64,000 nt of DNA, taken from the NCBI GenBank assembly GCA_964634685.1, contig CAZWLD010000005.1, positions 3,624 through 67,623 of the forward strand. The letters are read 5' to 3'. The notes under the pieces are model-generated. The model was not told the DNA's origin and did not search any database. It saw only the letters and a list, made by a program, of their open reading frames with translations. Numbering within the stretch: position 1 is the stretch's first letter; each line of letters begins with the position of its first letter. The stretch comes from an uncultured Anaeroplasmatales bacterium (GTDB lineage: Bacteria; Bacillota_I; Bacilli_A; Acholeplasmatales; JAEDCM01). Shown one piece after another: positions 6,223 to 27,552 of the stretch. A program made the translations under genes and the position numbers.

Positions 6223-6281
6223 TCTTTTATATTTTTATAATAAATTTAAAGATAAATAATCTGAAGCGAGTAAACCATAAT

Positions 6282-7511: not shown

Positions 7512-7640
7512 ACAATGTTCACCACCACTTATATTATATACTATACAATTTTGGAATTCAATTCCATTTTTGTATAAATTAAATATAAAATCATGCTTAA
7601 AAAAAGAGCTGTAATAATCTAAAAAATACAGCTCCATCTT

Positions 7641-9946: not shown

Positions 9947-9957
9947 TTTTTTACCTT

Positions 9958-10863
9958 CTAACTTAATTTAAGCATTGTATCTAACGCTTTATAAGCATTA
10001 GCTCGAACCGACTCTTCGACATTTACTTCATTGGTCTCATTTTTTAATACCTCATAAACATCCTTTAATGTGGTGAGCTTCATGTCATGGCAACGTAATC
10101 CTTCATCGAGTAAAAAGAATTCCTTACCTGGATTATCATTTTTTAATTTATGAAGAATTCCTTCTTCCGTTCCAACAATAAAGGCTTTAGCATCCGATTT
10201 TTTTACAAAATCAATGATACCAGCTGTCGATCCAACATAATCGGCTTCTTCTAAAACCTCAAGTCTCGCCTCAGGATGGACAGCAACTAAAGCATCAGGA
10301 TGAAGAGCCTTCATATTGACAACCATTTGACGATTCAAATTATCATGGATGCAGCAATCACCATCCCAACAATCAAAGGAAACATTTCTTAGCTTCATCG
10401 CATATTTTGCTAAATTACGATCAGGACAATATAAAATTTTCTCTCCCTTAGCTAAATAATGATCAATAATCTTAAGGGCATTTGAGCTTGTGACACAACA
10501 ATCACTCAAAGCCTTGACCTTAGCCGTTGAATTAACATAGCACAAAACCTTCGTATCGGGATGATTCTCCTTGTATAGACCTAATGAAACCTCATCAATC
10601 ATATTAGCCATTTTACATCCTGCCTCCATAACCGGTATTAAAACCTTTTTTTCTGGGGACAATATTTTAGCCGTTTCGGCCATAAAATGAACGCCACAAA
10701 AAACGATAATCTTCGCATCAGTTTGACTCGCCATCATCGATAATTTTAAGGAATCACCTAAATAATCAGCAATGTCCTGAATCTCGCCATTTTGATAATA
10801 ATGGGCTAAAATAATGGCGTTTTTTTCTTTTTTTAATTTTTTTATTTCTTCTACGTAGTTCAC
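9958..10863 (-). CDS. nadA: quinolinate synthase
   Basis: NAIILAHYYQ..EIQDIAD..GDSL signature. The GTG at 10863 follows GGAGTAGAGGTG; the track TTG start at 10884 contains that RBS. Confidence 0.9.
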   Translation of the reverse strand: MNYVEEIKKLKKEKNAIILAHYYQNGEIQDIADYLGDSLKLSMMASQTDAKIIVFCGVHFMAETAKILSPEKKVLIPVMEAGCKMANMIDEVSLGLYKENHPDTKVLCYVNSTAKVKALSDCCVTSSNALKIIDHYLAKGEKILYCPDRNLAKYAMKLRNVSFDCWDGDCCIHDNLNRQMVVNMKALHPDALVAVHPEARLEVLEEADYVGSTAGIIDFVKKSDAKAFIVGTEEGILHKLKNDNPGKEFFLLDEGLRCHDMKLTTLKDVYEVLKNETNEVNVEESVRANAYKALDTMLKLS

Positions 10864-11348
10864 AAAAAACACCTCTACTCCCAAGTATTATATCACATTC
10901 ATATGTAATATGAAACAAAAATAAAATTGAAATCCTTATCATATCCTATTTTAAAAGCTCTTTTCTTTACAAATGAGCATATAACGGAAACGAAGGGATA
11001 GGTGTTTTGTTTCCAATCGAAAATTTTTCGATGAAAAACATAATATTAGAGAAAATTGAAAAATTATTATGATAACCGATATTTTATCCATTTTTGGAAT
11101 TTGTTGTATCGCCTATTTTTTACCAAAATCAACCTCCCAGCAATTTTAGTGGAATCGCGGCTAGTATCCTTGCGGTAATTAATTCATCCTTAGAGGATAT
11201 TATCCGGCACCATCGTCGCATCGGCAATCATTAAGAAAATTATTGCGGTGATTATTGCCAAAATGGCCTTTAAATGGTCCCATGAAATCGAAAAAACAAT
11301 TGAAATGCCAAAAGGATAATAATATAATAAGACTAAAGGAGGGATTTT

Positions 11349-12587
11349 ATGAAACCCCTAGCCTATCGAATGCGTCCTAAAACCTTTGATGAGGTGTACG
11401 GACAGGATAATCTTATTGGCGAAAAAGGAATTATCCGCAAAATGCTCGAAACTAATTCCTTAACCTCAATGATTTTATATGGAGAACCCGGATGTGGCAA
11501 AACAACAATCGCCGAGATTATTGCCAGTAATTACAGTATGAATCATTATTTCTTTAATGCTTCTATCGACTCAAAGGATAAGCTTAAGGAGATTGCTCAA
11601 GCAACCAAATATTATGAAAATACCGTTTTAATTATCGATGAAATTCATCGAATGAAGAAGGATATTCAGGATTTTCTTCTCTCCTATATGGAAAATGGAA
11701 GCTTTATTGTCATCGGACTTACAACATCTAATCCATATCATTCCATTAATCCAGCCATTAGGTCAAGATGTCATCTTTTTAAATTGAATCCCATTACCAA
11801 TGACATGATGAAAAAAATTATCGATAACGCCCTTAATTCTTCGCTTTTACCCCAGAAAATCACCTTAGATAGTGATGTTTATCAATATATCATCGATAAT
11901 TCTAATCAAGAGGTTAGGACCTGTCTTAATATTGTCGAGGCCTTAGCAATTGGATCAAATGATGGTCATGTGACCCTCGAGGAAGCCAAAAGCTTAATCC
12001 TAAAGCCTTCATTATCCTTAGATAAGGATGGTGATAATTATTATGATACCATTTCGGCTCTTCAAAAATCCATCCGCGGATCCGATGTTAATGCGAGCCT
12101 TCATTATTTAGCTCGCCTTATCAGCGCCCAAGATTTAGAAATCCTAACCAGAAGACTCGTTGTCATTGCCTATGAGGATATTGGACTTGCCAATCCGAGT
12201 ATGGGTGAAAAGGCCGTTGCGGCTTGCGAGGCAGCCAAAATGCTTGGCTTCCCTGAAGCTAGAATTCCCCTTTCTCATCTCGTCATCGATATGGCGATTT
12301 CACCCAAATCGAATTCTGCCGAAGCGGCCATTGATAAAGCCATCAGTGATTTTGAGAAAGGATTAGGAAATGGTATTCCGGATAATTTAAAAAATGGTTT
12401 GATTTCTTCAGGAAAGGCAACCTATAAATATCCGCACGATTATCCTTCTGGTGTTATATCCCAGCAATATCTTCCTGATGACTTATTAGGCGTTGAATAC
12501 TATACCCCTAAGGAAACTAGTCAATATGAAAAAGCATTAAAGGAACGTTACAATATTTTAAAAACATATCAAATAAAAAAGCATTAA
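11349..12587 (+). CDS. rarA: replication-associated recombination protein A (MgsA/RarA AAA+ ATPase)
   Basis: MRPKTFDEVYGQ, Walker A GEPGCGKTT, Walker B IIDEIHR and the C-terminal MgsA domain (SIRGSD..ASLHYLARL). RBS is AAGGAGGG. Confidence 0.9.
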   Translation: MKPLAYRMRPKTFDEVYGQDNLIGEKGIIRKMLETNSLTSMILYGEPGCGKTTIAEIIASNYSMNHYFFNASIDSKDKLKEIAQATKYYENTVLIIDEIHRMKKDIQDFLLSYMENGSFIVIGLTTSNPYHSINPAIRSRCHLFKLNPITNDMMKKIIDNALNSSLLPQKITLDSDVYQYIIDNSNQEVRTCLNIVEALAIGSNDGHVTLEEAKSLILKPSLSLDKDGDNYYDTISALQKSIRGSDVNASLHYLARLISAQDLEILTRRLVVIAYEDIGLANPSMGEKAVAACEAAKMLGFPEARIPLSHLVIDMAISPKSNSAEAAIDKAISDFEKGLGNGIPDNLKNGLISSGKATYKYPHDYPSGVISQQYLPDDLLGVEYYTPKETSQYEKALKERYNILKTYQIKKH

Positions 12588-13328: not shown

Positions 13329-15002
13329 TCAATGAATTACATTTTTATATTCCATATCTGTAATAAATCCTGATTGAACGCGACAGCTTTTATCCTGATA
13401 TCGATAGATAAAATCACCCTTCCCGACCAAATAAATAGCTTGATCATTATCTAATAATTCATATGATTGACCGATATTATTTACCTTAAAAACTAATTTG
13501 ACCGGGAGTGTACTTTTAAGTAAATTGGTAATTGTATTAGGTTTTCGATTAATAACAACTAACGATATTCCAACCTTTTGACCGATTTGGGCTAAATAGA
13601 TAATTTTTCCTTCAATAGCTTGAAAATTCATACTGTCATATATTATTTCTAATCCATTAATGAAAAGAAAAAGATAATCCATTGTTTCACAATCAATTTT
13701 TTTTAAGTTAATAGCCTTGTTACATTCCTCGAGGCTATTGACCCCTAAAAATTTGAACAAATCCATTCTTCTTTCAATTTCATTTACAATCTCCGTAAAG
13801 GCTTTATCTAGTCCCTTTACATCCTTATAGTAATCAAATATTTCTAATTCGATAAATTCTTTATTTAAGTCCACAAAGGTAATTTTTATGGGCTTTTTTA
13901 ATAATTTTATTCCGGTAATCATTCCTTTAATGAAGGTTTTGATTCCCGTATTTAAAGAACCGCTTAACAACATATGAAGTCCTTTTTTATAATCAAAATC
14001 GATGATTTGATTATTAACATCAAATCCTAAATTGATGTTCTCATTTTCCTCCTTTAAGACTTTTTTTAATGACAACAAATCCTTAAACTTATTTTCAAAT
14101 TGAATTAATACTTGTCCCTTATCTATGGACATATAATAGGCCCCCGTAATAATTTCCTTGATTCTCGATTTTAAGATTTGCTCATCATAATTATTAAGGG
14201 TAAGCCTAATCTCAGAAAATAAATAGGACACACTAAAGCTCGTCTTTAAAACCTCGTAATTTAAAACCTTCATGAGATTACATACACCGTAATGAAGATC
14301 CTCAGTAATCTTATTTTGGAGATTCATATTGATGTTTGAATCAGAATCTGATAAAAGAGTAATGTTCTTCTTTTTGGGCTTTTTTTGATAATCGATTTTT
14401 TTAAAATAAGCAATGATTAGATAATAAATTTCCTTTAGCTTAATTACAAATCTTTTTAATAAATGATAAAAGCTAAAGAGATTATTATTTGAAATAAAAA
14501 TAAAAGAAATAAAAAGAACGAGGATGATTACTAAAAAGGAGCCAATATCTCCAAACAAAAAATAAAGGATTTGATAAATAAAGCCGCCAATCAAGCCACC
14601 ACCCATTATGTAGCTATCCTGAAAGCTTTTTAAATAAAGCATATAGATGTTCCACATTCCAACTAAGGAATTACTTCCATAGGCAAAGGAAAAGGTATAA
14701 AAATTTTGATGGGATAAGAGCATTAGACTTAACAATAATAAAAAAATACCATTGTACCTTAAGGTAAATAGATTAAATTTTTCTTTCTTAAAAACAAGAA
14801 GAAAACCGCTAACCATTCCCGTTAATAAAAAGCCAAAATACCAATCTCCTACTAATATTCGAAATAAAATCTGAAGTCCTGTTCCTATTTTTCCAATGGA
14901 AGCTAAAATAATCGTGGAAACAAAAATCAATCCCATCCCAATTAGCTCATAATATATTTCCTTATCCTCTTTGACCTCACGGAGCTTCTTTTCTTTGCCC
15001 AT
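13329..15002 (-). CDS. FtsK/SpoIIIE-like membrane protein with degenerate (non-catalytic) motor domain
   Basis: FtsK-type 4-TM N-terminus and a collinear motor-domain match. The Walker A position reads LLSGSLNTGIK (13935-13967), the Walker B position reads LFLFINGLE, and ATQRPS is replaced by VINRKPN. Confidence 0.7.
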   Translation of the reverse strand: MGKEKKLREVKEDKEIYYELIGMGLIFVSTIILASIGKIGTGLQILFRILVGDWYFGFLLTGMVSGFLLVFKKEKFNLFTLRYNGIFLLLLSLMLLSHQNFYTFSFAYGSNSLVGMWNIYMLYLKSFQDSYIMGGGLIGGFIYQILYFLFGDIGSFLVIILVLFISFIFISNNNLFSFYHLLKRFVIKLKEIYYLIIAYFKKIDYQKKPKKKNITLLSDSDSNINMNLQNKITEDLHYGVCNLMKVLNYEVLKTSFSVSYLFSEIRLTLNNYDEQILKSRIKEIITGAYYMSIDKGQVLIQFENKFKDLLSLKKVLKEENENINLGFDVNNQIIDFDYKKGLHMLLSGSLNTGIKTFIKGMITGIKLLKKPIKITFVDLNKEFIELEIFDYYKDVKGLDKAFTEIVNEIERRMDLFKFLGVNSLEECNKAINLKKIDCETMDYLFLFINGLEIIYDSMNFQAIEGKIIYLAQIGQKVGISLVVINRKPNTITNLLKSTLPVKLVFKVNNIGQSYELLDNDQAIYLVGKGDFIYRYQDKSCRVQSGFITDMEYKNVIH

Positions 15003-15386: not shown

Positions 15387-15410
15387 AAAAAAAAGGGTTG
15401 ATTTCAACCC
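15387..15410 (-). terminator. intrinsic terminator ending the seven-gene operon
   Basis: GGGTTG (15395-15400) pairs with CAACCC (15405-15410) around a 4-nt loop, followed on the minus strand by 8 T. It sits 5 nt after the stop at 15416. Confidence 0.6.
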
Positions 15411-15415
15411 ATTTT

Positions 15416-17149
15416 CTATATTTTATTTAATGCATCGATAATATCATAGCTAATATTATCATTGACAGTATAATCACGAATATATTGAAGATACTCATCA
15501 CAAATATTCTTCATAATACCTTGAGCCTCTGTGCATTCATTTTGAATTCGCATCTTGATACGTGATCTCTTACGATTATATAGGAAAATATTGATCGCCG
15601 TGATAATGAAAAATCCACAGCCAACAAGGAAGCCTAAATAATAAAGCTCCATTTCTTTTTGAATCATAAGCATACCTAGGGCTGTACCAGCAATGGCGAT
15701 GATTAAGCTAAGTAATGTTGGAATAATCGAAACCTTGCGAAGAAGGGTATTCTTCTTTTTTTCATAAAAGCCAATTACCTTTGAATCCTCACGGTCAGGG
15801 TTTTCCAAATCACAGATATTTTCATAGTCGTTGATACGGACTCTTCTTTCGGATGTCATAAGCTTGCGATAATCCTCAAAATAGGCATTAGCGGCCTTAA
15901 TTACAATATCCTTAGTTAAAGAAAACATATTCCAAATTGCTAAATTGCTGATGTTCTTTTCCTTAGGATCAAAAATCCATCCAACCATTTGATTAACCAA
16001 ATTAAGTGGCGATTTTTCTTCCTTTTTCTTGGCCTCATATATTTCCTTTGCGAGTTCAATATTGCCTTTATTTTTAATAATTTCCTCTTGATATTCAATT
16101 TCCTCATAAAGCTTCTTTTCCTTTTCACTTGGAACGTCGACTATATGATCTAAATAATTTTTTAAATAAGAATTTTTATCATCATCCGAGAAATTATTGA
16201 TTTTATTAATAAATTCTAAAATAGCGGAATTATTTTTGGCCCTTGATAAAATCAAAGTCAATTTATCTACATCCAAGCAATAATTTGCTAAATTCTTGTA
16301 ATATGAGGTTTCAGGAACATCCAAATGCACAAAATAATTATTGACATAATCAACTAAAGAGGCTTGAGATTGCTTTGCTTCCTTGCTTTTTAGTTGAGTT
16401 TGTAGATATTCCTTAATATCAACACTAATCGCATCCAGATTTTTGTCAGATACCTTACCACTTAATAAGGATATTAGCATCAAAAAGGTATCATCATCAC
16501 TCTTTTGCATATATGACTTTTGATAACGCTTAAACCAAAGACCAGCTGCTTCCTCACGTCCCATCAATAAATTGAAAATCATGAAGAAAATCGAGGTGTT
16601 TTTTTCATCAAGTGTCAAAGCATTTTTTAAAGCCTTATTAGCTCCATGCTTATTATCCTTTTTCCAATATAAAATCGCAACACAAGCTGCCGTAAGCCAA
16701 TAATCTGGTGATTTTAATTGCTTCTTTTCAATGCTTTTTTCTAAAACATCATCGGATACAACCTCTAAATTAAAGCTATCAAGAAGGGCTAAAATAACTC
16801 TTCTTACCGTACGATATTCATCAAAGGAATAATAAAGGTCATCCTGAAGGGCACGAATTTTTTTATTCGCATCCTCCATATTTTTGAAGGAATGATATAT
16901 CCTTTCAATCTCTAATTCAAGCTCATAGCTGTTTAGCATCATATCTGTTGAGGCCTTCAAGATATCTTTTGATTTATCGAGCTCAGCCTCAACCTTTTTA
17001 TTATATTCAGCTATTTCATTATTAGCCTTATCAACGGAATTAGTGACAAATTCAATTTCACCCTTGATTGTCTCATTTTTTCGCAATATTTCTTTTAGTT
17101 GCCCCTCAAGACGACTAATTTCGGATTTTAATTCACTTACTTCAACCAC
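15416..17149 (-). CDS. operon gene 7: coiled-coil/helical-repeat protein with C-terminal 2-TM hairpin (paralogue of genes 2 and 3)
   Basis: 577 aa, GTG start 8 nt after GGAGG. N-terminal heptad-rich region, the block DYWLTAACVAILYWKK..ANKALKNAL..FFMIFNLLMGREEAAGLWFKRY shared with the paralogues, and two C-terminal hydrophobic helices. Confidence 0.7.
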   Translation of the reverse strand: MVEVSELKSEISRLEGQLKEILRKNETIKGEIEFVTNSVDKANNEIAEYNKKVEAELDKSKDILKASTDMMLNSYELELEIERIYHSFKNMEDANKKIRALQDDLYYSFDEYRTVRRVILALLDSFNLEVVSDDVLEKSIEKKQLKSPDYWLTAACVAILYWKKDNKHGANKALKNALTLDEKNTSIFFMIFNLLMGREEAAGLWFKRYQKSYMQKSDDDTFLMLISLLSGKVSDKNLDAISVDIKEYLQTQLKSKEAKQSQASLVDYVNNYFVHLDVPETSYYKNLANYCLDVDKLTLILSRAKNNSAILEFINKINNFSDDDKNSYLKNYLDHIVDVPSEKEKKLYEEIEYQEEIIKNKGNIELAKEIYEAKKKEEKSPLNLVNQMVGWIFDPKEKNISNLAIWNMFSLTKDIVIKAANAYFEDYRKLMTSERRVRINDYENICDLENPDREDSKVIGFYEKKKNTLLRKVSIIPTLLSLIIAIAGTALGMLMIQKEMELYYLGFLVGCGFFIITAINIFLYNRKRSRIKMRIQNECTEAQGIMKNICDEYLQYIRDYTVNDNISYDIIDALNKI

Positions 17150-17152
17150 AGA

Positions 17153-18652
17153 TTAGTCCTCCTTTGAAGCATTTATCGCTCTTTCATTACCCCAGCTACG
17201 GCATTGCTCAATTGTCTCGGGATTTGAAATTGAAATCGGAATAATGCTCTTAATTTTCTTACAAACAAGATCAAAGGTAATGGCATCCTGTCCATTTAAA
17301 ATGGCATATTGGGCAACCTCCTTGATGGCGGTTTCAATATCCGCTGACGAATAGCCCTTGGTTAGCTCAACTAAGGTCTCAAGCTCGGAATCAAGGAAAT
17401 TAACATGAAGGCAACGATCACCATAATAAAGAATAACATTTTTTCGTTCCTCTTTATTAGGTAAATCAATGAAGAACATTTCCGAAAAACGGCCCTTACG
17501 GAAAAGTTCACTTGGAAGCTTAGTTACATCATTAGCGGTTGCTACAAGGAAAACGCGGCTTGTCGATTCCTGAAGCCAAAACAAAAATTGACCTAAAATT
17601 CGTTTACCCGTATCATTTCCCGAATCCGATGTTGATAAGGCCTTTTCGATTTCATCAATCCAAAGAACACAAGGCGAAACGTTGTCGATAAAATCCAAAG
17701 CCTCCTTCATCTTCTTTTCACTTTCTCCGACCCATTTATCGTAGACATTTCCTAAATCAAAGCGGAATAAAGGAAGCTCCCATTCAAGCGAAATCATCTT
17801 TGCCGATAGGGATTTACCACATCCTGGAACACCGGCAAGCAAAATTCCCTTTGGTGTTTCAAGGCTACGGGACGCAAGCACCTCATCAGGCGCAAAGAAG
17901 ATATTTTTCTTTTCCTTGAGCCAATCCTTAAGATTTTCTAGTCCGGCCACCTTGATAGTTGGATTAACCTCAACTAATTGAACGGTTGAAACACCCGAAT
18001 AAAGACGATTCTTTTGCTTTGTTAAATCGATAATATTATTTTTACCTAAGCCTTGTGGGGAAACTAAAGCGGCGGATAAAATATTCTCTAATTGAATCTC
18101 CGAAAAGCCTCTTAATAAGGTTGCGGCCTTGCGAGTTGCTTCATCATCCCAATTGATTTTAAAACGACCACTATAGGTTCGGATAAATTCATTAATTTGG
18201 ATAGCCCGTTCACTCATATCCGGAAAATCCAAAACGGTAATCATTCCGAAGCGAACCAAGCGACTCCAAACCTCATCCGGCGTTACAATGATAACGGTAC
18301 AGCTACTTTCCTTAGCTAAATATAAAACATTTAGTAAATCTCGGCTGTAGCTATTGTCACAATCAAGGTGTTTAATATCACCAATCGCAAAAATCATATT
18401 GTGGCGCTTTTTAAAGGTCTTAACCATATATCCAAGCGGATCACTATCGATATTAAGCGGTGTGCCCTCATTTTTCATATTATAGACCTGTTTAGCGTCT
18501 GTATAATACTCCAAATCAAGGTTTTTCTCATAGGCTAATTCTCCTAATAATCGTTCCACACGCTCTCTTTCGGCGGATTTTACGATAATTAACGGCGTTC
18601 TAGCACAAATATAATTAAATATTTCTTTTTTTACTGTACGAAAATTACTCAT
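17153..18652 (-). CDS. operon gene 6: classic-clade AAA+ ATPase, Ycf46-like architecture
   Basis: 499 aa. Walker A GVPGCGKS (aa 274-281), Walker B VLWIDEIEK, sensor-1 ATAN and SRH arginines FRKGRFS. The roughly 250-aa N-terminal region has no P-loop. GVPGCGKSLSAK...LPLFRFDLG...VGESE resembles Ycf46-type proteins. Confidence 0.8.
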   Translation of the reverse strand: MSNFRTVKKEIFNYICARTPLIIVKSAERERVERLLGELAYEKNLDLEYYTDAKQVYNMKNEGTPLNIDSDPLGYMVKTFKKRHNMIFAIGDIKHLDCDNSYSRDLLNVLYLAKESSCTVIIVTPDEVWSRLVRFGMITVLDFPDMSERAIQINEFIRTYSGRFKINWDDEATRKAATLLRGFSEIQLENILSAALVSPQGLGKNNIIDLTKQKNRLYSGVSTVQLVEVNPTIKVAGLENLKDWLKEKKNIFFAPDEVLASRSLETPKGILLAGVPGCGKSLSAKMISLEWELPLFRFDLGNVYDKWVGESEKKMKEALDFIDNVSPCVLWIDEIEKALSTSDSGNDTGKRILGQFLFWLQESTSRVFLVATANDVTKLPSELFRKGRFSEMFFIDLPNKEERKNVILYYGDRCLHVNFLDSELETLVELTKGYSSADIETAIKEVAQYAILNGQDAITFDLVCKKIKSIIPISISNPETIEQCRSWGNERAINASKED

Positions 18653-19147
18653 TTAATCACCTACTTTAAATATTTCGCCAAACGCTAATTTTTTCATGTC
18701 ATACAAAACATTAACATATTCCCGATTAACCCGTCCATTGAGTTCAAAAAATAGCGATAAATCCTTAAAGTATTTTTTAAGCTCCTGACATATTTGATCG
18801 GATAATTGCTTTCTTGTTTCAAAGCGAACAAATTCCAGATTTTGATAAAATGTTAAATTAACAAAATCATTTTTTAGTTTTTTTAAAAGTCTTGAAATAC
18901 CGATAAAATCATTGACCTCAATCATAAAATTAATATCCTTGTTAAATTTTTTTAGCTTTTTCGACATTGTAAAATTCAAATAGGAAACTAATTGATTTTG
19001 AAAAAGTCCAATAATATAGCTATCGTTTTCAAGCTTTCCTTGCCGAAGAATATTCGCATCATCCTCGGTCATTTCGTATTCCTTAAAATATTCAAAGGCC
19101 CGAAGCCATTCATTATATGTTGTTGGGGGATAAATAAACGCTTGCAT
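18653..19147 (-). CDS. operon gene 5: 164-aa hypothetical helical protein
   Basis: No recognisable motif. Its start shares one base with the stop of the 59-aa ORF (TAATG), and its stop abuts the AAA+ start (TAAATG). Confidence 0.6.
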   Translation of the reverse strand: MQAFIYPPTTYNEWLRAFEYFKEYEMTEDDANILRQGKLENDSYIIGLFQNQLVSYLNFTMSKKLKKFNKDINFMIEVNDFIGISRLLKKLKNDFVNLTFYQNLEFVRFETRKQLSDQICQELKKYFKDLSLFFELNGRVNREYVNVLYDMKKLAFGEIFKVGD

Positions 19148-19326
19148 TATTTAAAGAATGAAAAAGGTGGCTCTAAACTCCAAGCTGGAAGCTTTTTGTT
19201 CATTTCCTTAAGTTTTTCATTAGATAAATCGGTCGTCTTTTCATCATCATCGGCTTTAACAAGATTTTTCATAATATTTTTTTCTAATTTATCATTAATT
19301 TGAATTAAGTTTTCCTCATTTTTCAT
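19147..19326 (-). CDS. operon gene 4: unlisted 59-aa ORF
   Basis: Hand translation gives MKNEENLIQINDKLEKNIMKNLVKADDDEKTTDLSNEKLKEMNKKLPAWSLEPPFSFFK. GGAGG lies 8 nt upstream of the ATG at 19326. It falls below the track's 60-aa cutoff and fills the only apparent gap in the operon. Confidence 0.6.
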   Translation of the reverse strand: MKNEENLIQINDKLEKNIMKNLVKADDDEKTTDLSNEKLKEMNKKLPAWSLEPPFSFFK

Positions 19327-19338
19327 GATTAATTCCTC

Positions 19339-20937
19339 CTATAGATGCTCAATTAAGCTATAAAGCTCAGTTTTTAAAGCTTTATTTTCTTCAATTTGAC
19401 GCTTAGCCTCGGCTAATTCCGTCATTAACAATCTTAATACCTGCTGCTGTTGCTTGAGCTGATCCTTATATTTCTTTTCAGCTAAGCAAATTCTAGTGAT
19501 GAGAAGCACTCCAAAAACACCAGTTGCAATGTAGCTAAATGGTGATAATTGTAAGCCCCCAACAACACCTAAAGCTGCTAATAATAATAAAATTATATTT
19601 AAGACATTGGCATATTTAATACCAAATTTATGCTTTTCAAAGGATTCCTTCATGGCTTCTAGCTGTTCGCGTTCATCATCGCCATTGGAAATGGATTTAA
19701 AGCTTCCAATTTGAATCGCAAACTGCGTCGGATTCTTACTTTCAAAGGAGCTCGACCACTCATTTAAGGCTCCAAGGAACCAAACCTTTGTATTTTGGAA
19801 GGAGAATTTACGCACCTGCTCGTCCGTGTCGGCATCATATAACGCCCAGTTAACCATTTGTTTACCAATGTTATAGCCGCTATCACGAACATCCATCATC
19901 TCTGTGTATTGCTTCTTCGCAAATTCGGTATCACCATCATTTTTAACAATCATTTGGTAATACTCCTTTTGCTTACGTAATTCAACCTCATCCTTATCAT
20001 AATTGTTAATTAAATCCTCTAAAACCGCATCAACACGAACTTTGTAATTGGCATTAGTCTGATTTACCATCTCAACATCGACAGCCTTAATTAGTTCAAT
20101 TAAATCATTGTATTTTGCGGATTCCAAATAGGCAAACATAACATTATCATAATTTGAACAATGAGATTTAATGGTTTTGAAATTAAATTCCTTTTTGCTC
20201 TTGAGATTAACAAGATAATTTTTAAATGAATCAACAATTTCTGTGCTGATATCTTCATTTAAATTGATTTCCATTACCCAGTTATCAATAACCTGTTGTA
20301 CCTCAAATTCAAGCTCCTTATCCTTGCCAAACAAGCCATTAACATAAGCCTGAATAATGATAGCTGTTTCGCTTTGGATTTGGGTTGGGTCAAGCGTCTT
20401 CATATATTCGAAGAACCAGCGCTTGGCCGTTGGGATTCGATTAAAACGGATATTCATCAAACAGAAAAACAAAGATGTTTTAACTGGATCCTTTCGGAAG
20501 CTTTCGCTAACCGCATTATTAGCGAGATCCGGTTGGTCATTAACCCAAGCTGTGATAGCAATTAAAGCATAGCTTAGCCAATAACGACTTGAGGTCATCC
20601 ACAATTCTTCGGATAATTCCTCAATCGTACTGTTACGAATAAGGTTAATATCAAAGTCCTTAACAACACCCATAACGGTTCTTCTGACTTCAACATAATT
20701 ATTAAATTTCTCGCGAATAACCTGATCAATACGAATGATATTTTCATGAGCAATTTGCTTTTCCTCATTTAAAATCATTTCATTTTTAAATTTATTGACA
20801 CGATCATAAATTCGATCGGTTGTTTGCTTGATGGTGTTGGTCGCTTGGTTGACATTTTCAATCTTGACGTCAACCTTCGTTTTAAACCCTTCTAAGGTTT
20901 CATTCAATTGCTTGACTGCATTTTCTGAACTACTCAT
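19339..20937 (-). CDS. operon gene 3: coiled-coil/helical-repeat protein with C-terminal 2-TM hairpin plus terminal coiled coil
   Basis: 532 aa with an ATGA overlap with gene 2. Shared block RYWLSYALIAITAWVN..ANNAV..FFCLMNIRFNRIPTAKRWFFEYM, and two TM helices (VLNIILLLLAALGVVGG, YIATGVFGVLLITRICL). Confidence 0.7.
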   Translation of the reverse strand: MSSSENAVKQLNETLEGFKTKVDVKIENVNQATNTIKQTTDRIYDRVNKFKNEMILNEEKQIAHENIIRIDQVIREKFNNYVEVRRTVMGVVKDFDINLIRNSTIEELSEELWMTSSRYWLSYALIAITAWVNDQPDLANNAVSESFRKDPVKTSLFFCLMNIRFNRIPTAKRWFFEYMKTLDPTQIQSETAIIIQAYVNGLFGKDKELEFEVQQVIDNWVMEINLNEDISTEIVDSFKNYLVNLKSKKEFNFKTIKSHCSNYDNVMFAYLESAKYNDLIELIKAVDVEMVNQTNANYKVRVDAVLEDLINNYDKDEVELRKQKEYYQMIVKNDGDTEFAKKQYTEMMDVRDSGYNIGKQMVNWALYDADTDEQVRKFSFQNTKVWFLGALNEWSSSFESKNPTQFAIQIGSFKSISNGDDEREQLEAMKESFEKHKFGIKYANVLNIILLLLAALGVVGGLQLSPFSYIATGVFGVLLITRICLAEKKYKDQLKQQQQVLRLLMTELAEAKRQIEENKALKTELYSLIEHL

Positions 20938-22772
20938 TTAGTGCTCTCTCCTTCACTTTTAAATCGTTCGATTGTGGCTTTAAGAACCATCGCCTTTTTA
21001 TCCGCATCCTTATAGGCATCATACCATCTATCAAAATCCTTAATGGTATCCTCTAATTGTTTAACATATTTTTCCTTACGCTTATTGAAGGTTCGTTTTC
21101 TTCGTAAAATTCCAAAAATTGATAATCCACCGAAGATAACAGTTATTGCCATTCCCACGATTAAGGCAATAACATCATAATATACTGGTAAAAGGGCAAG
21201 AGTGGTAATACCACACAATGTTAGCATTAAAGAGATGATAATAAGTCGATTATCAAAGGCATACCAGAAAAAGGATTTTGAGTAATGCTTATTTAAATTC
21301 TTAAAGGCTTCCTCGTCATGTCCATATTGATAGGGAATATGGTATTCATCAATCACAAATTCATATTCCTGCTTGAGCTGACTTTGATAATTCTTTTGGA
21401 AATTTTGGGCTCCTTGGACTAAGCAATCATTAAGATAATTCATCGCAAAATGGCGAAGCCTGATATTTAGATTAACATCCTTATCAGCTATGGCCCATCT
21501 TAATAAAAGCTCATCAAGGCCAAATTTATGGTTGTTTTCATACAATAATTCGTAATTCTTGGTTGCAACCGTAATATCACCCTTAGCCTGAATAATGGCC
21601 TCGTGGTATTTTATCTTTTTGAAAATCTCATATTCATCATCGTCATAGGAATTAATTAAATCATATAAGGTGTTTTCAATTTTTCTTGCTAAATCGGTCA
21701 CATCATCCTCGCTTATGGCGTAAATTTCGGTGAAATAATTAGCAAGACAAAAATTCTTTTCCGCGAGGGTTAATAAATTCAACATATCTTGATAATTTGT
21801 ACAATAACGAGAAAGATTGATAAATTCTTCCTTAGTCGAATGCGGATAGGCATTCATATATTCCGTAAATTGATTTGTAACCTTTCTTTCATAGCCAACA
21901 TTAAGAATCTTGACCTTATTAATGATATCATCAATTTCCTTTGCAACCTGACTAGAGAAGCCTTGACTTTTTCCAAAGCAATTATATAAATATGCCTCTA
22001 ATAAATATTGCCATTCCTCTCCAACGGCCGAAATATCAAAGCGATCTAAATATTTTAAAAACCACATTCGAGCCGCATCAATTCTTGTAAATCGTAAATT
22101 AATTAATAAGAAATATAGACAAGCCCGATTATGATCTAAATTCAAGGCCTTTACAATTGCACGGTTAGCTGCCTCTTCTTCATTATTGGCCCAAAGCATT
22201 ACCGCTGATAAGGCATAGCTAAGCCAATATTCTGAATTTTGAAGAACGGTTTTTTCAACCTTCATTCGAAGATTTTCATTGTGAATAATATGATTATCTA
22301 GACCAATAACATAGCCTAAGGCAATTCTTCTGAGCTCATTATAGAAATGATACTTCGTATTATACATTTGTGTATATTCCGTTAAGCTTTTCGAAGCCGC
22401 ACTAATATTTTTTAATGAAAAATACGATACTGTTAGTTCATCCAATATATGAAATAATGATTCGGTATAGTCATTAATCTCCTTCATTGCCTTACCAGTT
22501 CCATCCATATCGGTCGAAATCTTGTCGCGAACATCCGAGGCATTAGCTGTAATTTTGATGGTTTCACCAACAACATTATCAAGCTCCTTCGATAATTGAT
22601 TTTGTAAAGCAATAGCCTCCTCAATTTTTTGTAAAAGAGAAGCCTTCTTTTCTTCTAGTTCTTCAATTTGCGCCTGTAATTGTTCTTCCTTAGATATTTC
22701 ATTGTTATCTAAAGCAACTACTTCATCATCGATTTGGGAAATTGGTTCTTTTTCAATTTGTTTATTTTCCAT
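20934..22772 (-). CDS. operon gene 2: coiled-coil/helical-repeat protein with C-terminal 2-TM hairpin
   Basis: 612 aa. Acidic coiled-coil N-terminus, shared block EYWLSYALSAVMLWAN..ANRAIVKAL..YFLLINLRFTRIDAARMWFLKYL, and two TM helices near the C-terminus. Confidence 0.7.
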   Translation of the reverse strand: MENKQIEKEPISQIDDEVVALDNNEISKEEQLQAQIEELEEKKASLLQKIEEAIALQNQLSKELDNVVGETIKITANASDVRDKISTDMDGTGKAMKEINDYTESLFHILDELTVSYFSLKNISAASKSLTEYTQMYNTKYHFYNELRRIALGYVIGLDNHIIHNENLRMKVEKTVLQNSEYWLSYALSAVMLWANNEEEAANRAIVKALNLDHNRACLYFLLINLRFTRIDAARMWFLKYLDRFDISAVGEEWQYLLEAYLYNCFGKSQGFSSQVAKEIDDIINKVKILNVGYERKVTNQFTEYMNAYPHSTKEEFINLSRYCTNYQDMLNLLTLAEKNFCLANYFTEIYAISEDDVTDLARKIENTLYDLINSYDDDEYEIFKKIKYHEAIIQAKGDITVATKNYELLYENNHKFGLDELLLRWAIADKDVNLNIRLRHFAMNYLNDCLVQGAQNFQKNYQSQLKQEYEFVIDEYHIPYQYGHDEEAFKNLNKHYSKSFFWYAFDNRLIIISLMLTLCGITTLALLPVYYDVIALIVGMAITVIFGGLSIFGILRRKRTFNKRKEKYVKQLEDTIKDFDRWYDAYKDADKKAMVLKATIERFKSEGESTK

Positions 22773-22815: not shown

Positions 22816-25716
22816 TTATAATCCTGATACCTTGCAACAAAACTCCATATGTTTGTCGATAAAGCCCTTTACGCCCTCTAGATATTTCTTAAAGCGTACA
22901 GCCTTTGCGCCAATTCTAATATCCTGATTGATATTTAAGTTAGCCTCAAAGAAGCTTCTTAGAATTCGCTCAGACATTTTGTCATCATCCTTATTTTTTA
23001 ATAAATAGGCCTGAGGAACATTAATCGAAATATAATCCTGCGCAAAAGGAATTTCGACACTGATATCACCTAGTGGATCTAAAAGATGACAGCTAAATTC
23101 AATAAAGTAATCATATTTCTTATCAAGCTTAGCATACATCAAGAAATTAGCAAAGGCTTTACCAGATAATTTAATATTCTTTATATACAAGCTTTGGAAG
23201 ATAACCTCATCAAATGGATAGGAATCGTTTAACCTGAGTAAATAATATTCAAGACATTCTGGCTTAACAGCTTGTCCATTTTCAACTAAAATACGGATAA
23301 CATTTCCATCAATTCTTTGATCCTTAATATAATCGATGAATTCCTGTGTTCCTAGAGTTAATTTACGATTACATAATTGTAAAACAACACGCTTCATCAC
23401 ACTAGGACTATCGTTGTTCTTCCTAAGATAATTAGCCAAAATAGTACTGAAATAAAGAGGATTCATATTTAAATCTAAAAGCATTTGCACAACCAATGGC
23501 TTTTGGTCACCATCATAATTTGAGGTGATGACATATCTCTCTAAAGCTGTAATTGGAATGTCTTGGACATTTTTAAATAAGACCTCTAATACTTTAATTC
23601 TTTCCTCGACTGAGCTTTGATTGAAGCAAAGATAGTAATTCATAATATTGTCATATGATTTTCTGGAAATATTGAATTCACATAGCTTTTCAAGCATTTC
23701 AATTTTCGAATCTAAGGTAAAATAAGGTTTTCGAAGAAATTCATTCATAGCTCGATAATCAAAATCATATGGAAGCTTTTTATCGATTAAAACGCTAATA
23801 ATTTTTAATCCAATTAAATCATTTTTACATTTGCCCGTTAAGACAAAATCTAAGATAAGCATAAACTGGTCATAAGAAATATCACTCGCAAGTAATTCAA
23901 AAACCGGCTCAACATATTTGGTATCATTTGCGCTGAATAAAACGTAGCGAATTAAAAATTCACTGTCGATAATGATTTGCTTCTTGCTAGCAATTAAAAC
24001 AACCTGAACCTTGGTTGAAACCTTATCAAGACTATTCTTTAAATAATCCTCGACAAGCTTTGAATCCGTAATATTATAGGCATCAGCCTTTAGTAAGATT
24101 TCAACTAAATCAAGCTTCGCATCGCCATCCTTGAAATTCTTTAAAATCTTCGTTAGAGTTAATTTTTTATCTTTATATTCTAAGCGGGAAACTAGACGGT
24201 AAATAATTCGATTGTAGCCTTCCTGTAAAAGGAAATCCAAGACAGCTTGGAAAACTGGTTCTTCGGTTATATTTTCATAATTGATAATATTTTGAATAAA
24301 AGACGTTCTTGTTTCATCACCTAATGTATAGAATAAAGATAAAAGCAATCCGTAGATATTATCGTCCTTAAGCATAACATAAATCGCCGTTTCATCGTCT
24401 GAAATAACCTCAACATTTTGGACAATATTGGTATTTAATTCCTTAATTTGGGATAAAAGAGCATCAACATTAGCATTTGGTTGATAGATTCTTCTTAATA
24501 AATAAGCCAAATTAACGATAGTTGTACAAATATGATTAGGATAATTTCTTTCACAATCAACTAAATAGGTTTTGGCATTTGGAAAATCCTCACAAGCAAT
24601 TGCCCCTAAGCAATTCTTGAGACTTTGGGTGTATTCTAAATCCGCCGCTACTGATGTTTCATCCTTACTAATGTTCGCTAAGGCCTGCTCCATCTTGGCA
24701 ATACGTTCACGTTGTTCCTTACGATACAATTCATCGCTTAATTCATCACGATGAATAATTTCATCTAATTCTTCCTTTAATTCTTTTCTTGTTTCTTCAT
24801 TTTCGGTCACATTCATTTGAACACATAACAGCAATTGTTCAAATTTTCCATACTGGTCAATGACCGCATCAATGGTGTTAATATGCTTAAAGCTATAGGA
24901 AAATTGCTTATGAGCATATTCGTCGATTTCGAAATAGATAAGGTTCTTGTTAATTCTTTGGGCATATTGAGCTTCCTTAACACATTCATCCGAATCTAAA
25001 AAATTCTTGGAGCCCACAATCAAAAAGCATTTCGAATTCTTGATTCCTAAGGCAATGTCATCATATCTTGTTTTCGGATTATGACCTAAATCTCTTGGGG
25101 CAATAAAGCATTTTAGCTGTTCATCCTCTAAAAGCTCTAAAATATCATAAGCCAAATCCTTATCCTTATCGGCATAGAGAATAAAAACATCGCGTTTATT
25201 TTCATCAATGACTAATTCCTGTTCTTTGCGCTTTGTTTCCTTAACTAAAAGCTGATACCAACGATTTTGAATTGATGGATCCTCAAAGGCTTTACCGATA
25301 AACTCCATCACATATTTATTGTAGCGGAGGGAGCATGTGACAATCATATGCTTTAAAACCTCGGCGATATTTTCATCCGTTGCATAAGAAAAATCCGCAT
25401 TTAATAAAAAGTCAACATAATTTGAATCGTCATAAAAAATGCGTGATGCATAGGCTTGATAATAATTGGCTAAAAAGTCATCTGGTAAGATTCCTAAAAT
25501 CTCATTTGAATAATCACTTATTTCTTGATAATCAAAGGCATTAACGGCATGAATAAGCTTAAAACGATATTCATTGATTCGTCTGGCCTCAATATCGGAT
25601 ACAGTTCCAAATTCACTTGCGAGCTTAATATTATTAGCTCGTCCACAATTATGACACGTTCCATCAGGAGCGAGATTTGAAAAGCCACAATGTGTACATT
25701 TTAGATAATGTCCCAT
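22816..25716 (-). CDS. operon gene 1: Zn-ribbon + TIR-domain protein with a roughly 680-aa helical C-terminal region
   Basis: 966 aa. CxxC-x10-CxxC at aa 7-24. TIR-like block at aa 176-285 (24862-25191): DVFILYADKDKDLAYDILELLEDEQLKCFIAPRDLGHNP..KCFLIVGSKNFLDSDECVKEAQYA..TIDAV, with E248 at the catalytic-Glu position. Confidence 0.75.
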   Translation of the reverse strand: MGHYLKCTHCGFSNLAPDGTCHNCGRANNIKLASEFGTVSDIEARRINEYRFKLIHAVNAFDYQEISDYSNEILGILPDDFLANYYQAYASRIFYDDSNYVDFLLNADFSYATDENIAEVLKHMIVTCSLRYNKYVMEFIGKAFEDPSIQNRWYQLLVKETKRKEQELVIDENKRDVFILYADKDKDLAYDILELLEDEQLKCFIAPRDLGHNPKTRYDDIALGIKNSKCFLIVGSKNFLDSDECVKEAQYAQRINKNLIYFEIDEYAHKQFSYSFKHINTIDAVIDQYGKFEQLLLCVQMNVTENEETRKELKEELDEIIHRDELSDELYRKEQRERIAKMEQALANISKDETSVAADLEYTQSLKNCLGAIACEDFPNAKTYLVDCERNYPNHICTTIVNLAYLLRRIYQPNANVDALLSQIKELNTNIVQNVEVISDDETAIYVMLKDDNIYGLLLSLFYTLGDETRTSFIQNIINYENITEEPVFQAVLDFLLQEGYNRIIYRLVSRLEYKDKKLTLTKILKNFKDGDAKLDLVEILLKADAYNITDSKLVEDYLKNSLDKVSTKVQVVLIASKKQIIIDSEFLIRYVLFSANDTKYVEPVFELLASDISYDQFMLILDFVLTGKCKNDLIGLKIISVLIDKKLPYDFDYRAMNEFLRKPYFTLDSKIEMLEKLCEFNISRKSYDNIMNYYLCFNQSSVEERIKVLEVLFKNVQDIPITALERYVITSNYDGDQKPLVVQMLLDLNMNPLYFSTILANYLRKNNDSPSVMKRVVLQLCNRKLTLGTQEFIDYIKDQRIDGNVIRILVENGQAVKPECLEYYLLRLNDSYPFDEVIFQSLYIKNIKLSGKAFANFLMYAKLDKKYDYFIEFSCHLLDPLGDISVEIPFAQDYISINVPQAYLLKNKDDDKMSERILRSFFEANLNINQDIRIGAKAVRFKKYLEGVKGFIDKHMEFCCKVSGL

Positions 25717-25844: not shown

Positions 25845-25877
25845 AAGAGAAAAAAGAACTAGCACAAATCTAGTTCT
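25845..25877 (-). terminator. intrinsic terminator of rnj
   Basis: AGAACTAG (25855-25862) pairs with CTAGTTCT (25870-25877) around a 7-nt loop, followed on the minus strand by TTTTTTCTCTTTT. The stem includes the rnj stop codon. Confidence 0.6.
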
Positions 25878-27552
25878 CTGGTAAATCTGTCGAAATAATA
25901 ACCGGTATTGTAATTGGGTTACGCTTTGTTTCTTTATATAAATATTTATTTACTTCCGTTTTTAAATCATTCTTTAAATCAGCCCAATTAATATATTTAT
26001 TAACTAAATATTTTGAAACGACATTATCAAAAATGGTTTTAATATCATTATTTATATGCTCCATGTCCTTAATATGAACAAAGCCTTTTGAGACAATTTC
26101 TGGACCGGAAAGCACCTTTTTCGTTTTCGGTGAAATATTCGCAACAATCAATAAAACACCATCCTCAGATAATAATTCGCGATCTCTTAGGACAACATCA
26201 TTGACATCTCCAGCCATCGACCCATCGATTAAAACCTCATTAGCCTTAAGGTCAGCTATTGCTCCATCTAATACTTTATTATTAAAAACAAAGCCATTTC
26301 CAAGGTCCCCCATAATAATATTTTCATCATTATAGCCCATCTCTAAAGCAATTTTTCTGACATAATATTGATGGCGATATTCGCCAATAACGGGAAAAAT
26401 ATATTTCGGCTTTAAGATATTTATCATCATCTTGACCTCTTCACTTGTCGCATGACTGATTGGAAGCTTCGATTTATCAAATAATGTCACCTTAGCGCCT
26501 GTTCGATATAAAACATCAAGGGTACGCGCACTCATCTTCTCGGTTCCTTGAATCGGGAGCGTTAAAATAATGACATTATCACTTTCAGAAACATGTATTA
26601 GTCGATCAATTTTTTTGCACATTCTTTGAAGCATAAAGAAGGGCTCATGACGGTCTCCTGTCACTAAAACAACTAAATTATCATCTAAATTATCATTTTT
26701 TTCATCAATATAACGAAGATTAACCAAGACATCCTTGGGGATTTCTAAGTATCCTAGTTTAACAGCCACATCCACAATTCTTTGGGTTTTTCTTCCAATA
26801 ATCGCGATTTTTTTCTGATAAGAAATCGCTAAATCGATAACCTTTTGTATTCTTAATAAATCCGAACTAAACAAAGAAACAATAATTCTTCCACTCGCGT
26901 TCGAAAAAACACCATTAAGCTTGTGCATTAATTCATAGTGGTGAGCCGGATTTCCAAATTGATCAGCGCCATAGCTCTCAGTCATAAGACATAAAACCTT
27001 TTTCTTGGCAACCTCGTTTAACCTTGCAAAATTCGTTTGGTATTTCTTATCGACATTTTGATCAAAGGTATAATTTCCGGTATAAACAATACTTCCATCC
27101 TTCGTTTCAATAACAATCGCAATTGATTCCGGAATATTGTGAGTTGTCGCAAAAAAGGAAACAGAGGATGACTGAAATTTTAAGGTTGTATTATTATTAA
27201 CTGTTATTAATTTGACATCATCGAGCTTATAGTCATTCTCAAGTAGTAAATCACTTATTAGGGCATTAGTAAAGCTTGTACCATAAATAGGTACATCGAT
27301 TTCCTTCAACAAATGCGGAATAGCCCCGATATGCTCAATATGACAGTGGGTAATAAAAAGCCCACGAATTCGATTTTTATTTTCAACTAAATAACTAAAA
27401 TCTGGGATAATAGTATCTATTCCAAGAAGCTCAACCGAAGGATATTTAATTCCCGCATCCAAAATAAAAATATCTTGGTCAACCTCAACAACATACATAT
27501 TTTTTCCCTTTTCACCCAAACCACCGAGGGCGCCTGCAATAATTTTGCTCAT
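25870..27552 (-). CDS. rnj: ribonuclease J (metallo-beta-lactamase/beta-CASP family), variant motif II
   Basis: 560 aa with the RNase J layout. Motif II reads HCHIEH (27331-27348) instead of the usual HGHEDH. Confidence 0.85.
   Translation of the reverse strand: MSKIIAGALGGLGEKGKNMYVVEVDQDIFILDAGIKYPSVELLGIDTIIPDFSYLVENKNRIRGLFITHCHIEHIGAIPHLLKEIDVPIYGTSFTNALISDLLLENDYKLDDVKLITVNNNTTLKFQSSSVSFFATTHNIPESIAIVIETKDGSIVYTGNYTFDQNVDKKYQTNFARLNEVAKKKVLCLMTESYGADQFGNPAHHYELMHKLNGVFSNASGRIIVSLFSSDLLRIQKVIDLAISYQKKIAIIGRKTQRIVDVAVKLGYLEIPKDVLVNLRYIDEKNDNLDDNLVVLVTGDRHEPFFMLQRMCKKIDRLIHVSESDNVIILTLPIQGTEKMSARTLDVLYRTGAKVTLFDKSKLPISHATSEEVKMMINILKPKYIFPVIGEYRHQYYVRKIALEMGYNDENIIMGDLGNGFVFNNKVLDGAIADLKANEVLIDGSMAGDVNDVVLRDRELLSEDGVLLIVANISPKTKKVLSGPEIVSKGFVHIKDMEHINNDIKTIFDNVVSKYLVNKYINWADLKNDLKTEVNKYLYKETKRNPITIPVIISTDLPEN

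Follow-up and report, generated by a model that had tools for sequence, protein, structure and literature searches.

In the 64,000-nucleotide stretch of contig CAZWLD010000005.1 from an uncultured Anaeroplasmatales bacterium (here called the window), seven tightly packed genes on the minus strand (25716-15416) encode, in order, a TIR-domain protein, a helical membrane protein (A), its relative B, a protein of 59 amino acids (aa; s59), a protein of 164 aa (p164), an AAA+ ATPase, and a third relative, C. Our main finding is that A, B, and C belong to a family, here called X, whose genes always stand with those of three partners: a protein of about 60 aa with an LPxW(S/D)LxPP motif, a helical protein of about 160 aa, and a Cdc48/VAT-like AAA+ protein with a predicted dead first and live second ATPase domain. 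Within the libraries searched, X is an uncharacterized family in an uncharacterized, widespread multigene system of which only the ATPase falls in a known family. We propose, with a probability of roughly 45%, that the three paralogues build a hetero-oligomeric platform at the cytoplasmic membrane face, which works with the AAA+ unfoldase in an accessory conflict system.

Three paralogues of an unrecognized family

An earlier note on this DNA, made from the letters alone, had held that the 612-, 532-, and 577-aa products are related, share collinear blocks, end in two adjacent hydrophobic helices, and belong to a family that it did not recognize. All of this was borne out, and the genes had been correctly placed. 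Pairwise BLASTP is significant for A and B (1e-41, 26% over 367 aa), A and C (4e-24, with a collinear alignment of 554 aa that takes in the hydrophobic hairpin), and B and C (5e-22), and profile-profile comparison of the orthologue sets gives E values of 5e-64, 6e-61, and 2e-47 for the three pairs, with a probability of 100% each. These comparisons confirm A, B, and C, at the level of sequence, as true paralogues. The three shared blocks consist of residues that are invariant across the whole family, as judged from 44 sequences comprising A, B, C, and single-copy relatives (described below). In the numbering of B, the positions conserved in at least 90% of these sequences are A63, R85, G90, E110, Y119-W120-L121, W131, A139, A142, F157, R164, R167, W174, Y178, E317, G335, and A340. 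A, B, and C all have the signature residues, the C-terminal transmembrane (TM) hairpin, and the neighboring genes for the small tail protein, the ~160-aa helical protein (p16), and the tandem AAA+ protein by which we recognize members of X.

All three proteins start with a coiled coil, continue with a conserved helical core, and end in a basic tail behind the hairpin. A pair of hydrophobic 19-residue segments near the C terminus was found in each of A, B, and C, with basic residues on both sides of the hairpin, and none of the three has an N-terminal signal sequence. The TM helices are rich in small-xxx-small motifs. An AlphaFold2 model of B, made from an alignment of 34 sequences (mean predicted local distance difference test score [pLDDT], 82), is all-helical except for one beta hairpin. 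A short helix is followed by a helix of 66 residues (29-94), by paired helices (103-200) bearing the YWL..W / R..R...A..W..Y signature, by more helices to residue 399, and by the beta hairpin (406-417); the TM helices, 445-463 and from 467, are separated by a loop of 3 residues, and the second runs on to residue 531. Given this two-TM hairpin, both termini in the model must be cytoplasmic. A, B, and C are thus predicted to be membrane-anchored proteins whose bulk, about 440 of about 530 residues, faces the cytoplasm. The TM segments are less conserved than the rest, and the invariant residues lie in the cytoplasmic core.

Searches for known relatives gave nothing for A, B, or C beyond coiled-coil noise in Pfam, NCBIfam, and PADLOC (v2, dated 2023) and no match in sequence and profile searches of the PDB. 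The model of B had no Foldseek match below E 0.005 among PDB and viral models, and neither it nor a model of p164 had a match with E below 0.07 among 350,542 PDB chains. In the Pfam scans the E limit was 0.1 for whole proteins, 1 for 34 family members, and 10 for segments; HMMER filters drop most matches above about 0.1, so that the scans cannot exclude very weak similarity. When 1.84 billion representative proteins were searched with the family profile, 785 relatives had an E value of 0.001 or better. Of the best 150, nearly all are 530 to 620 aa long and match end to end, the remainder being fragments. X is a closed family without a bridge to a known one.

The partner ATPase

The window ATPase matches Pfam AAA (4.5e-28) and AAA_lid_3 (6.3e-6), and its best solved relatives in the PDB are the D2 domains of VAT, Cdc48, and p97 (E 5e-44). 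Of 68 orthologues, 66 retain Walker A and 67 retain Walker B; the aromatic pore loop (KWVGESE or YVGQSE) is conserved. The Walker motifs, the pore loop, the AAA lid, and the closeness to VAT/Cdc48 D2 place the protein in the classical AAA+ clade. No Walker A of the form G.PG.GK[ST] is visible in the N-terminal half of the window protein. By hhalign this half aligns weakly with the C-terminal one (60%, E 8.6e-5) in the part that runs from sensor 1 to the lid. The partner of A, B, and C would therefore seem, on these motifs, to be a tandem AAA+ protein of the Cdc48/VAT type in which the first ATPase domain is dead and the second is live. Tandem classical AAA+ proteins of this dead/live kind have been reported beside PspA in Clostridia (PMC11237479) and in CoCoNuT defense loci (PMC11090510). 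The window ATPase, with its degenerate N-terminal and active C-terminal AAA domain, follows the domain logic of the Cdc48/p97/VAT-type unfoldases, which include bacterial tandem forms whose first domain is inactive, but no Cdc48 N-domain or MIT domain was detected in the window ATPase, its operon lacks a protease or proteasome partner, and A, B, C, s59, and p164 are not known cofactors of such ATPases. All NCBIfam matches of the window ATPase fall far below the family cut-offs. Its likeness to IetA of the IetAS system (PADLOC, 1.8e-29; NCBIfam IteA, 76 bits) is to be read against an equivalog cut-off of 510 bits and covers only the shared AAA domain; moreover, the window operon encodes no IetS-like protease and its ATPase is tandem.

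The earlier note had also tied the paralogues to the adjacent AAA+ gene, and this association held in every form of the system, including a minimal form with one paralogue. Its placing of the three paralogues in one operon stands as to the unit itself, but the genes of A, B, and C are not contiguous, those of s59, p164, and the AAA+ protein separating B from C, and the triplicated operon is the derived form of a system that was single-copy in its ancestral state. Its gene inventory missed s59 altogether and did not count the 966-aa TIR gene as part of the unit. The stop of A overlaps the start of B by 4 nucleotides (nt), and the stop of s59 overlaps the start of p164 by 1 nt; the AAA+ gene directly adjoins p164 on one side and is followed by C after a gap of 3 nt. 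Such overlapping or abutting genes suggest coupled translation, and with the tight packing and terminator-like hairpins at both ends the seven genes look like one transcription unit.

The small proteins and the TIR protein

The C terminus of s59 carries a near-invariant motif, ..ERLKEMNKKLPAWSLEPPFSFFK, and the protein is kept in 78 of the 82 species-level loci of the cassette described below. Among the 7,768 open reading frames (ORFs) of the loci no other family has this motif, and translation of the window in six frames shows it a single time. The AlphaFold2 model of p164 (pLDDT 88.9) has six helices and no match in the PDB better than E 0.1; its sequence has no match in Pfam or the PDB, and a homologue search with p164 alone found only close relatives.

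In the 966-aa protein an N-terminal Zn ribbon is followed by a TIR domain and, toward the C terminus, by a body of helical repeats. Its residues 367 to 961 align with residues 52 to 654 of F660a, the ~660-aa component of related cassettes (hhalign E 4e-60); the protein is this component with a TIR domain inserted after the Zn ribbon. The same insertion is present in its orthologue in locus L049 (TIR_2, 4.9e-14), where the genes around it differ from those of the window. A phmmer search of the PDB with the TIR domain returned nothing at E below 0.01. In many systems TIR domains are NAD-cleaving enzymes. The operon is about 5 kb away from nadB and nadA, the genes for de novo NAD synthesis, a proximity that is probably coincidental synteny. 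Related cassettes have an SPFH and a 4-TM gene, and the idea that the TIR domain takes the place of these two as an exchanged effector was ruled out, since L049 has the TIR domain plus both genes.

The large cassette in other genomes

Orthologues of the B type, 41 to 50% identical to window B, are found in loci of Bacillota, Actinomycetota, and Chloroflexota, their hosts being Lachnospiraceae, Oscillospiraceae, Ruminococcus, Christensenellaceae, Hungatella, Bifidobacterium, Eggerthellaceae, and Anaerolineae. The order A-B-s59-(p164)-AAA-C is intact in 72 of the 82 loci and interrupted by contig ends in the others, and A, B, and C are all present in every locus that no contig end cuts. The genes upstream vary. 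They encode a YdjI-type protein with an SPFH domain (Band_7_1) and a Zn ribbon (51/82), after it a 4-TM protein of about 229 aa (60/82), the Zn-ribbon and helical-repeat protein of about 660 aa (67/82), and, optionally, a HerA/DUF87-like ATPase of about 910 aa (28/82) and a protein with an acidic N terminus and a papain-fold, Gln_amidase-like domain, followed by a gene for about 158 aa (22 to 23 of 82). The SPFH and 4-TM genes are not adjacent to the operon in the lineage of the window. We had considered the 229-aa protein as a PspA-sized ESCRT-III candidate, but it is a 4-TM membrane protein without a Pfam match.

The proteins that flank the cassettes fall into 183 clusters among 196 proteins and are almost never common to different species, which indicates that the cassette is an independently inserted unit. 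It is common in gut Clostridia and has moved between at least five phyla. In a close relative of the window (L086), synteny is exact: the operon lies between the genes for RNase J and an FtsK-like protein, and the B proteins are 78% identical. The sole recurrent domain in the flanks is a Zn ribbon (11 of 149 flanking proteins); Zn ribbons recur in the SPFH protein, the ~660-aa protein, and extra flanking genes.

The optional papain-fold protein, seen at 5744-8202 of locus L004 and 13-1239 of L007, has a long acidic N terminus with repeated DDFEQFE-like motifs and a C-terminal Gln_amidase-like domain (PF15644, 1.7e-10 in L007). The gene for the ~910-aa HerA/DUF87-like ATPase comes before this toxin-like protein and the ~158-aa gene after it, so that the pair resembles, by analogy, a toxin and immunity layout.

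A minimal, single-copy form

Comparison of B with plasmid and phage records revealed single-copy relatives at 23 to 26% identity (E 1e-28 to 6e-42), among them Kn570 of Komagataeibacter (BLASTP, 8e-44) and Jv573 of a Streptococcus satellite (6e-43). The minimal module in which they occur encodes a Cys/His protein of about 160 aa, an X protein of about 570 aa, a small protein, a protein of 154 to 186 aa (p15x), and an AAA+ protein of about 520 aa, with the Cys/His gene at either end. We found it on two plasmids of Komagataeibacter nataicola (on one at 1.1 to 5.6 kb), where an IS3 transposase and an integrase adjoin it; on a Comamonas megaplasmid; in Fusobacterium vincentii; at 9.6 to 14.3 kb of Streptococcus satellite phage Javan368 (L089, MK448457.1); on one IMG/VR contig, beside a large serine recombinase; and in a widespread gut species, beside the insertion site of an integrase-bearing element.

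Four of its proteins correspond to those of the window by hhalign: X to B (6e-58), A (2e-43), and C (1e-40), p15x to p164 (98.8%, E 9e-17), the small protein to s59 (90.5%, E 1.3e-6), and the AAA+ proteins to each other (6e-132). The small protein always ends in (L/F)PxW(S/D/N)(L/I)xP(P/A) followed by basic residues. From this correspondence, we conclude that the order B-s59-p164-AAA is ancestral. B is the closest of the three to the single-copy member, and A and C are later paralogues that became fixed in the large cassette.

The Cys/His protein occurs in minimal systems only (L089 13775-14257, L090 1106-1576, L091 8444-8929, L092 12908-13402, and L093 12040-12531). It has invariant residues C93, E100, H102, H113, and E140 and the motif KCxLGxPxExH..IIxHxKxG; it has no match in Pfam, PADLOC, or the PDB, including by PDB profile search, and hhalign finds no counterpart in the large cassette. 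We regard it as a candidate effector or metal-binding protein.

Several details of individual loci may be added. The GenBank annotation of Javan368 lacks an ORF of 58 aa (11409-11585), ending ..GLPSWDIVPPQLLVRRKRQK, which encodes the s59 tail protein of this satellite. In the gut species an N-terminal Zn ribbon is added to the small tail protein; at 7706-7996 of L100 the protein is 96 aa long and joins such a ribbon (CPKCG..CVSCG) to an LPEWSIEPP tail. Some strains of this species have a split X or ATPase gene. In four gut metagenome contigs (L094, L095, L097, and L101) the X gene is split into parts of 96 and 478 aa, and in L101 the AAA+ gene is split as well (421 and 109 aa); the sister contigs L096 and L098 to L100 are intact. 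A Tn916-type integrase-bearing element lies between lysS and the minimal module in several contigs of the gut species.

Coordinates and neighboring genes

The features of the window are collected in Table 1. Its first gene, the 5' part of which runs off the window start, resembles the SPFH/Zn-ribbon proteins of related cassettes (tblastn E 2e-12) and lies 15 kb from the operon. The gene that comes after the operon's terminator-like hairpin, also the neighbor in L086, encodes a 557-aa protein with N-terminal TM segments and a weak FtsK_SpoIIIE match (7e-8), from whose sequence a canonical Walker A is absent.

Table 1. Positions of the seven-gene unit, its predicted parts, and neighboring genes in the window
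Feature	Position (nt)	Strand	Residues	Remarks
TIR protein	22816-25716	-	966 aa	First gene of unit
TIR domain of 966-aa protein	24829-25188	-	177-296	Pfam TIR_2 2.1e-13
Helical-repeat body of 966-aa protein	22834-24618	-	367-961	Homologous to F660a
Paralogue A	20934-22772	-	612 aa	Coiled-coil N terminus, core, predicted TM hairpin, basic/helical tail
A conserved core	22050-22331	-	148-241	Family signature region
A TM hairpin	21117-21245	-	510-552	19-residue segments 510-528 and 534-552; hydrophobicity
Paralogue B	19339-20937	-	532 aa	Coiled-coil N terminus, core, predicted TM hairpin
B conserved core	20404-20685	-	85-178	Family signature region
B TM hairpin	19483-19605	-	445-485	19-residue segments 445-463 and 467-485; hydrophobicity
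s59	19147-19326	-	59 aa	Acidic; between B and p164
LPAWSLEPP part of s59 motif	~19165-19191	-		
p164	18653-19147	-	164 aa	All-helical
Tandem AAA+ ATPase	17153-18652	-	499 aa	
N-terminal degenerate AAA-like half	17960-18652	-	1-231	hhalign with C-terminal half
C-terminal classical AAA domain	17243-17887	-	256-470	Predicted active; pore loop KWVGESE
Paralogue C	15416-17149	-	577 aa	GTG start; last gene of unit
C conserved core	16523-16804	-	116-209	Family signature region
C TM hairpin	15581-15718	-	478-523	19-residue segments 478-496 and 505-523; hydrophobicity
Terminator-like hairpin and T run	15395-15410	-		Directly after C stop; 3' end of transcription unit
Terminator-like hairpin	25853-25879	-		End of upstream RNase J gene; parts it from the unit
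FtsK-like gene	13329-15002	-	557 aa	
nadB and nadA	8459-10884	-		
AAA_14 and DUF4143 ATPase	6282-7637	-		2.6e-40 and 1.8e-27; unrelated to operon
Band_7_1/YdjI-like SPFH gene	16-315	-		5' part

Comparison with known systems

The earlier note had named PspA/Vipp1/ESCRT-III, EzrA, TPR, and pore-forming folds as comparisons to be made. The PspA/ESCRT-III and EzrA folds were absent from the Pfam scans and the top Foldseek matches, and the TPR and pore-forming folds gave weak Foldseek matches (E 0.1 to 1). Neither the PspA_IM30 nor the Snf7 profile turned up in these scans, be it at E ≤0.1 for the three paralogues, p164, and s59, at E ≤1 for the 34 family members, or at E ≤10 for N-terminal, core, and C-terminal segments, and no PspA, Vipp1, CHMP, Snf7, or CdvB stood among the top 50 Foldseek matches of B or p164. 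With no Pfam or Foldseek match, an ESCRT-III/PspA identity of A/B/C and p164 was rejected, and a loose functional analogy was kept. As with PspA, Vipp1, or ESCRT-III and Vps4, helical, coiled-coil-rich proteins of the inner face are coupled to a classical AAA+ protein, the coupling here being a genetic link only, and most related cassettes have an SPFH/Zn-ribbon partner like YdjI of Bacillus subtilis, which recruits PspA in that organism. Unlike PspA and ESCRT-III, A, B, and C are integral by way of the predicted hairpin and not peripheral, and an SPFH gene is missing from the window operon.

To the eye, W, A, and F residues in the conserved core are spaced as in a TPR, but Pfam and a consensus comparison do not support a TPR identity. 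The sole Pfam TPR match was TPR_8 in the core of C (E 0.68), and the profiles of A, B, and C reached hhalign probabilities of 1 to 6% against an approximate consensus CTPR3 sequence. The B model has paired helices at residues 103-200, and its local Foldseek matches included MamA, at a probability of 0.9 but E 0.6 (165 columns), as well as SPY, APC/C, and PEX5, all at E above 0.07; the core may be TPR-like.

The fold of the tripartite alpha-toxins (ClyA) was rejected: SmhB and AhlB matched at E 0.1 to 1, with TM-scores of 0.13 to 0.21 and root-mean-square deviations of 17 to 23 Å. AhlABC, SmhABC, Hbl, and Nhe share with the window operon the presence of three paralogous helical components with a hydrophobic helical hairpin. 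In contrast to those toxins, A, B, and C lack a secretion signal, lie for the most part on the cytoplasmic side as predicted, are always linked to the ATPase, and have single-copy relatives. With no signal sequence and with basic residues on both flanks of the hairpin, A, B, and C do not look like secreted toxins that act from outside. Membership in SLATT is not supported: a single one of the 34 family members matches SLATT_5 (E 0.011), and scans of the three paralogues' C-terminal segments gave no SLATT match at E ≤10.

Abortive-infection systems with TIR domains, such as Thoeris (ThsB) or those with Pycsar and CBASS effectors, resemble the window operon in the TIR_2 domain of its first gene. 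Here, however, the domain is inserted in a ~660-aa helical-repeat protein and seen in two lineages only; there is no ThsA, cyclase, or other known partner, and the PADLOC match to ThsB is weak (E 0.006). Full-text literature searches turned up no account of the cassette.

Possible functions

In the mechanism that we propose, contacts between coiled coils and between TM hairpins rich in small residues would join A, B, and C into a hetero-oligomeric platform at the inner membrane face, which would recruit the small tail protein, p164, and Zn-ribbon-bearing partners, in the window the Zn-ribbon/TIR/helical-repeat protein. With its pore loops, a hexameric AAA+ unfoldase might then grip one of the platform components and remodel or extract it, turning the system on or off. 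The role would most likely be that of a horizontally transferred accessory conflict system, for abortive-infection-like defense or toxin deployment, with the TIR domain as its output here. The strict co-occurrence, coupled genes, coiled coils, and small-residue-rich TM helices argue for the hetero-oligomeric platform, and a conflict role is suggested by the TIR domain, by accessories of the toxin-like and Cys/His kinds, by the copies on a satellite and on plasmids, and by horizontal transfer and gene decay. A broader proposal, which we make tentatively and consider somewhat doubtful, is that the quartet of X, small tail protein, p16, and tandem AAA+ protein constitutes an undescribed, horizontally transferred class of membrane conflict system with interchangeable effectors. 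The coiled-coil platform would sense an insult and the unfoldase would then license the effector, which may be the TIR domain here, the ~160-aa Cys/His protein in minimal forms, and the papain-fold toxin-like proteins elsewhere.

A number of observations weigh against a conflict platform. The operon is stable between RNase J and housekeeping genes in two genomes of the lineage, and TIR is found in only 2 of the lineages seen. When 149 flanking proteins from 80 loci were compared with PADLOC and Pfam, there was no clear enrichment of known defense genes, as would be expected of a defense island, the PADLOC matches being a handful, mostly to generic ATPase models. Since X, s59, p164, and the ~160-aa protein are not modeled in PADLOC v2, they have no tie to validated defense. 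Sequenced plasmids and phages rarely carry the family: it was found in 4 of 72,556 plasmid records, one of which is in fact a chromosome, in 1 of 50,697 phage records, and at one locus in IMG/VR. Most cassettes carry a YdjI-like SPFH/Zn-ribbon protein, which would point to membrane homeostasis and not immunity.

The cassette could also be an envelope-stress or membrane-remodeling machine, comparable to PspA/ESCRT-III with Vps4 or to SPFH cages with FtsH, in which A, B, and C and the SPFH/Zn-ribbon protein would coat or organize a membrane patch and the AAA+ protein would recycle the assembly. We consider it somewhat unlikely. It would account for the 51 of 82 cassettes that begin with the YdjI-type Band_7_1 and Zn-ribbon protein followed by the 4-TM protein, for the position of all soluble mass of A, B, and C at the cytoplasmic side of the membrane, and for the missing defense-island signal; a separate Band_7_1-like gene at the window start and the dead/live tandem AAA+ proteins that adjoin PspA in Clostridia (PMC11237479) also fit. 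Yet PspA_IM30 and Snf7 are absent from the Pfam matches and ESCRT-III structures from the top 50 Foldseek matches of B and p164, neither the window operon nor the minimal systems have an SPFH gene, TIR and papain-fold toxin-like accessories fit poorly, and the patchy horizontal distribution, with gene decay in some strains, weighs against a core homeostasis role.

The hairpins themselves could instead be the effectors, oligomerizing into a pore from the cytoplasm in the manner of holins, SLATT proteins, or alpha-toxins, with the AAA+ protein keeping A, B, and C inactive or triggering them. Two adjacent TM helices in each protein, rich in small-xxx-small motifs and joined by a loop of about 3 residues, would suit such a role, as would the three-component logic of AhlABC and SmhABC, the pore forms of SmhB and AhlB among the top Foldseek matches (probability 0.3 to 0.6), and the contact of one of 34 family members with SLATT_5 (E 0.011). 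We nevertheless think it unlikely: those Foldseek matches are not significant, the SLATT match concerns a single member, conservation is lower in the TM segments and invariant in the cytoplasmic core, a cytoplasmic share of ~440 of ~530 residues is far beyond the need of a pore former, and minimal systems are single-copy. Very doubtful, in our view, is an apparatus for toxin export, in which the hairpins would form a conduit and the AAA+ protein (with the HerA/FtsK-like ATPase where present) would unfold and feed substrates, either the acidic papain-fold toxin-like protein or the small tail protein. The strictly conserved C-terminal motif of the small protein could be a signal, and the HerA/DUF87-like ATPase (28/82) and the papain-fold protein with its ~158-aa gene (22 to 23 of 82) recall a polymorphic toxin and immunity layout, but these genes are optional and absent from the window and all minimal systems. 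Furthermore, A, B, and C expose almost nothing outside the membrane, minimal systems occur in one- and two-membrane bacteria without an outer-membrane component, and the TIR domain is internal to a 966-aa cytoplasmic protein and not a C-terminal toxin tip. A secretion system restricted to monoderms was ruled out, with minimal systems in Proteobacteria and Fusobacterium.

Significance

Four of the five core proteins of the system (X, the LPxW(S/D)LxPP tail protein, p164, and the Cys/His protein) have no match in Pfam, NCBIfam, PADLOC, or the PDB, and two have confident AlphaFold models without a known fold neighbor. The minimal five-gene form, on a 26-kb plasmid and a 14-kb phage satellite, is a small, clonable unit. 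If the system serves membrane stress, it would be a non-ESCRT-III answer to the problem solved by PspA and Vps4. If, as we propose, it serves defense or toxin deployment, its architecture, with a Cdc48-like unfoldase at the membrane as the centerpiece, would be new among such systems.

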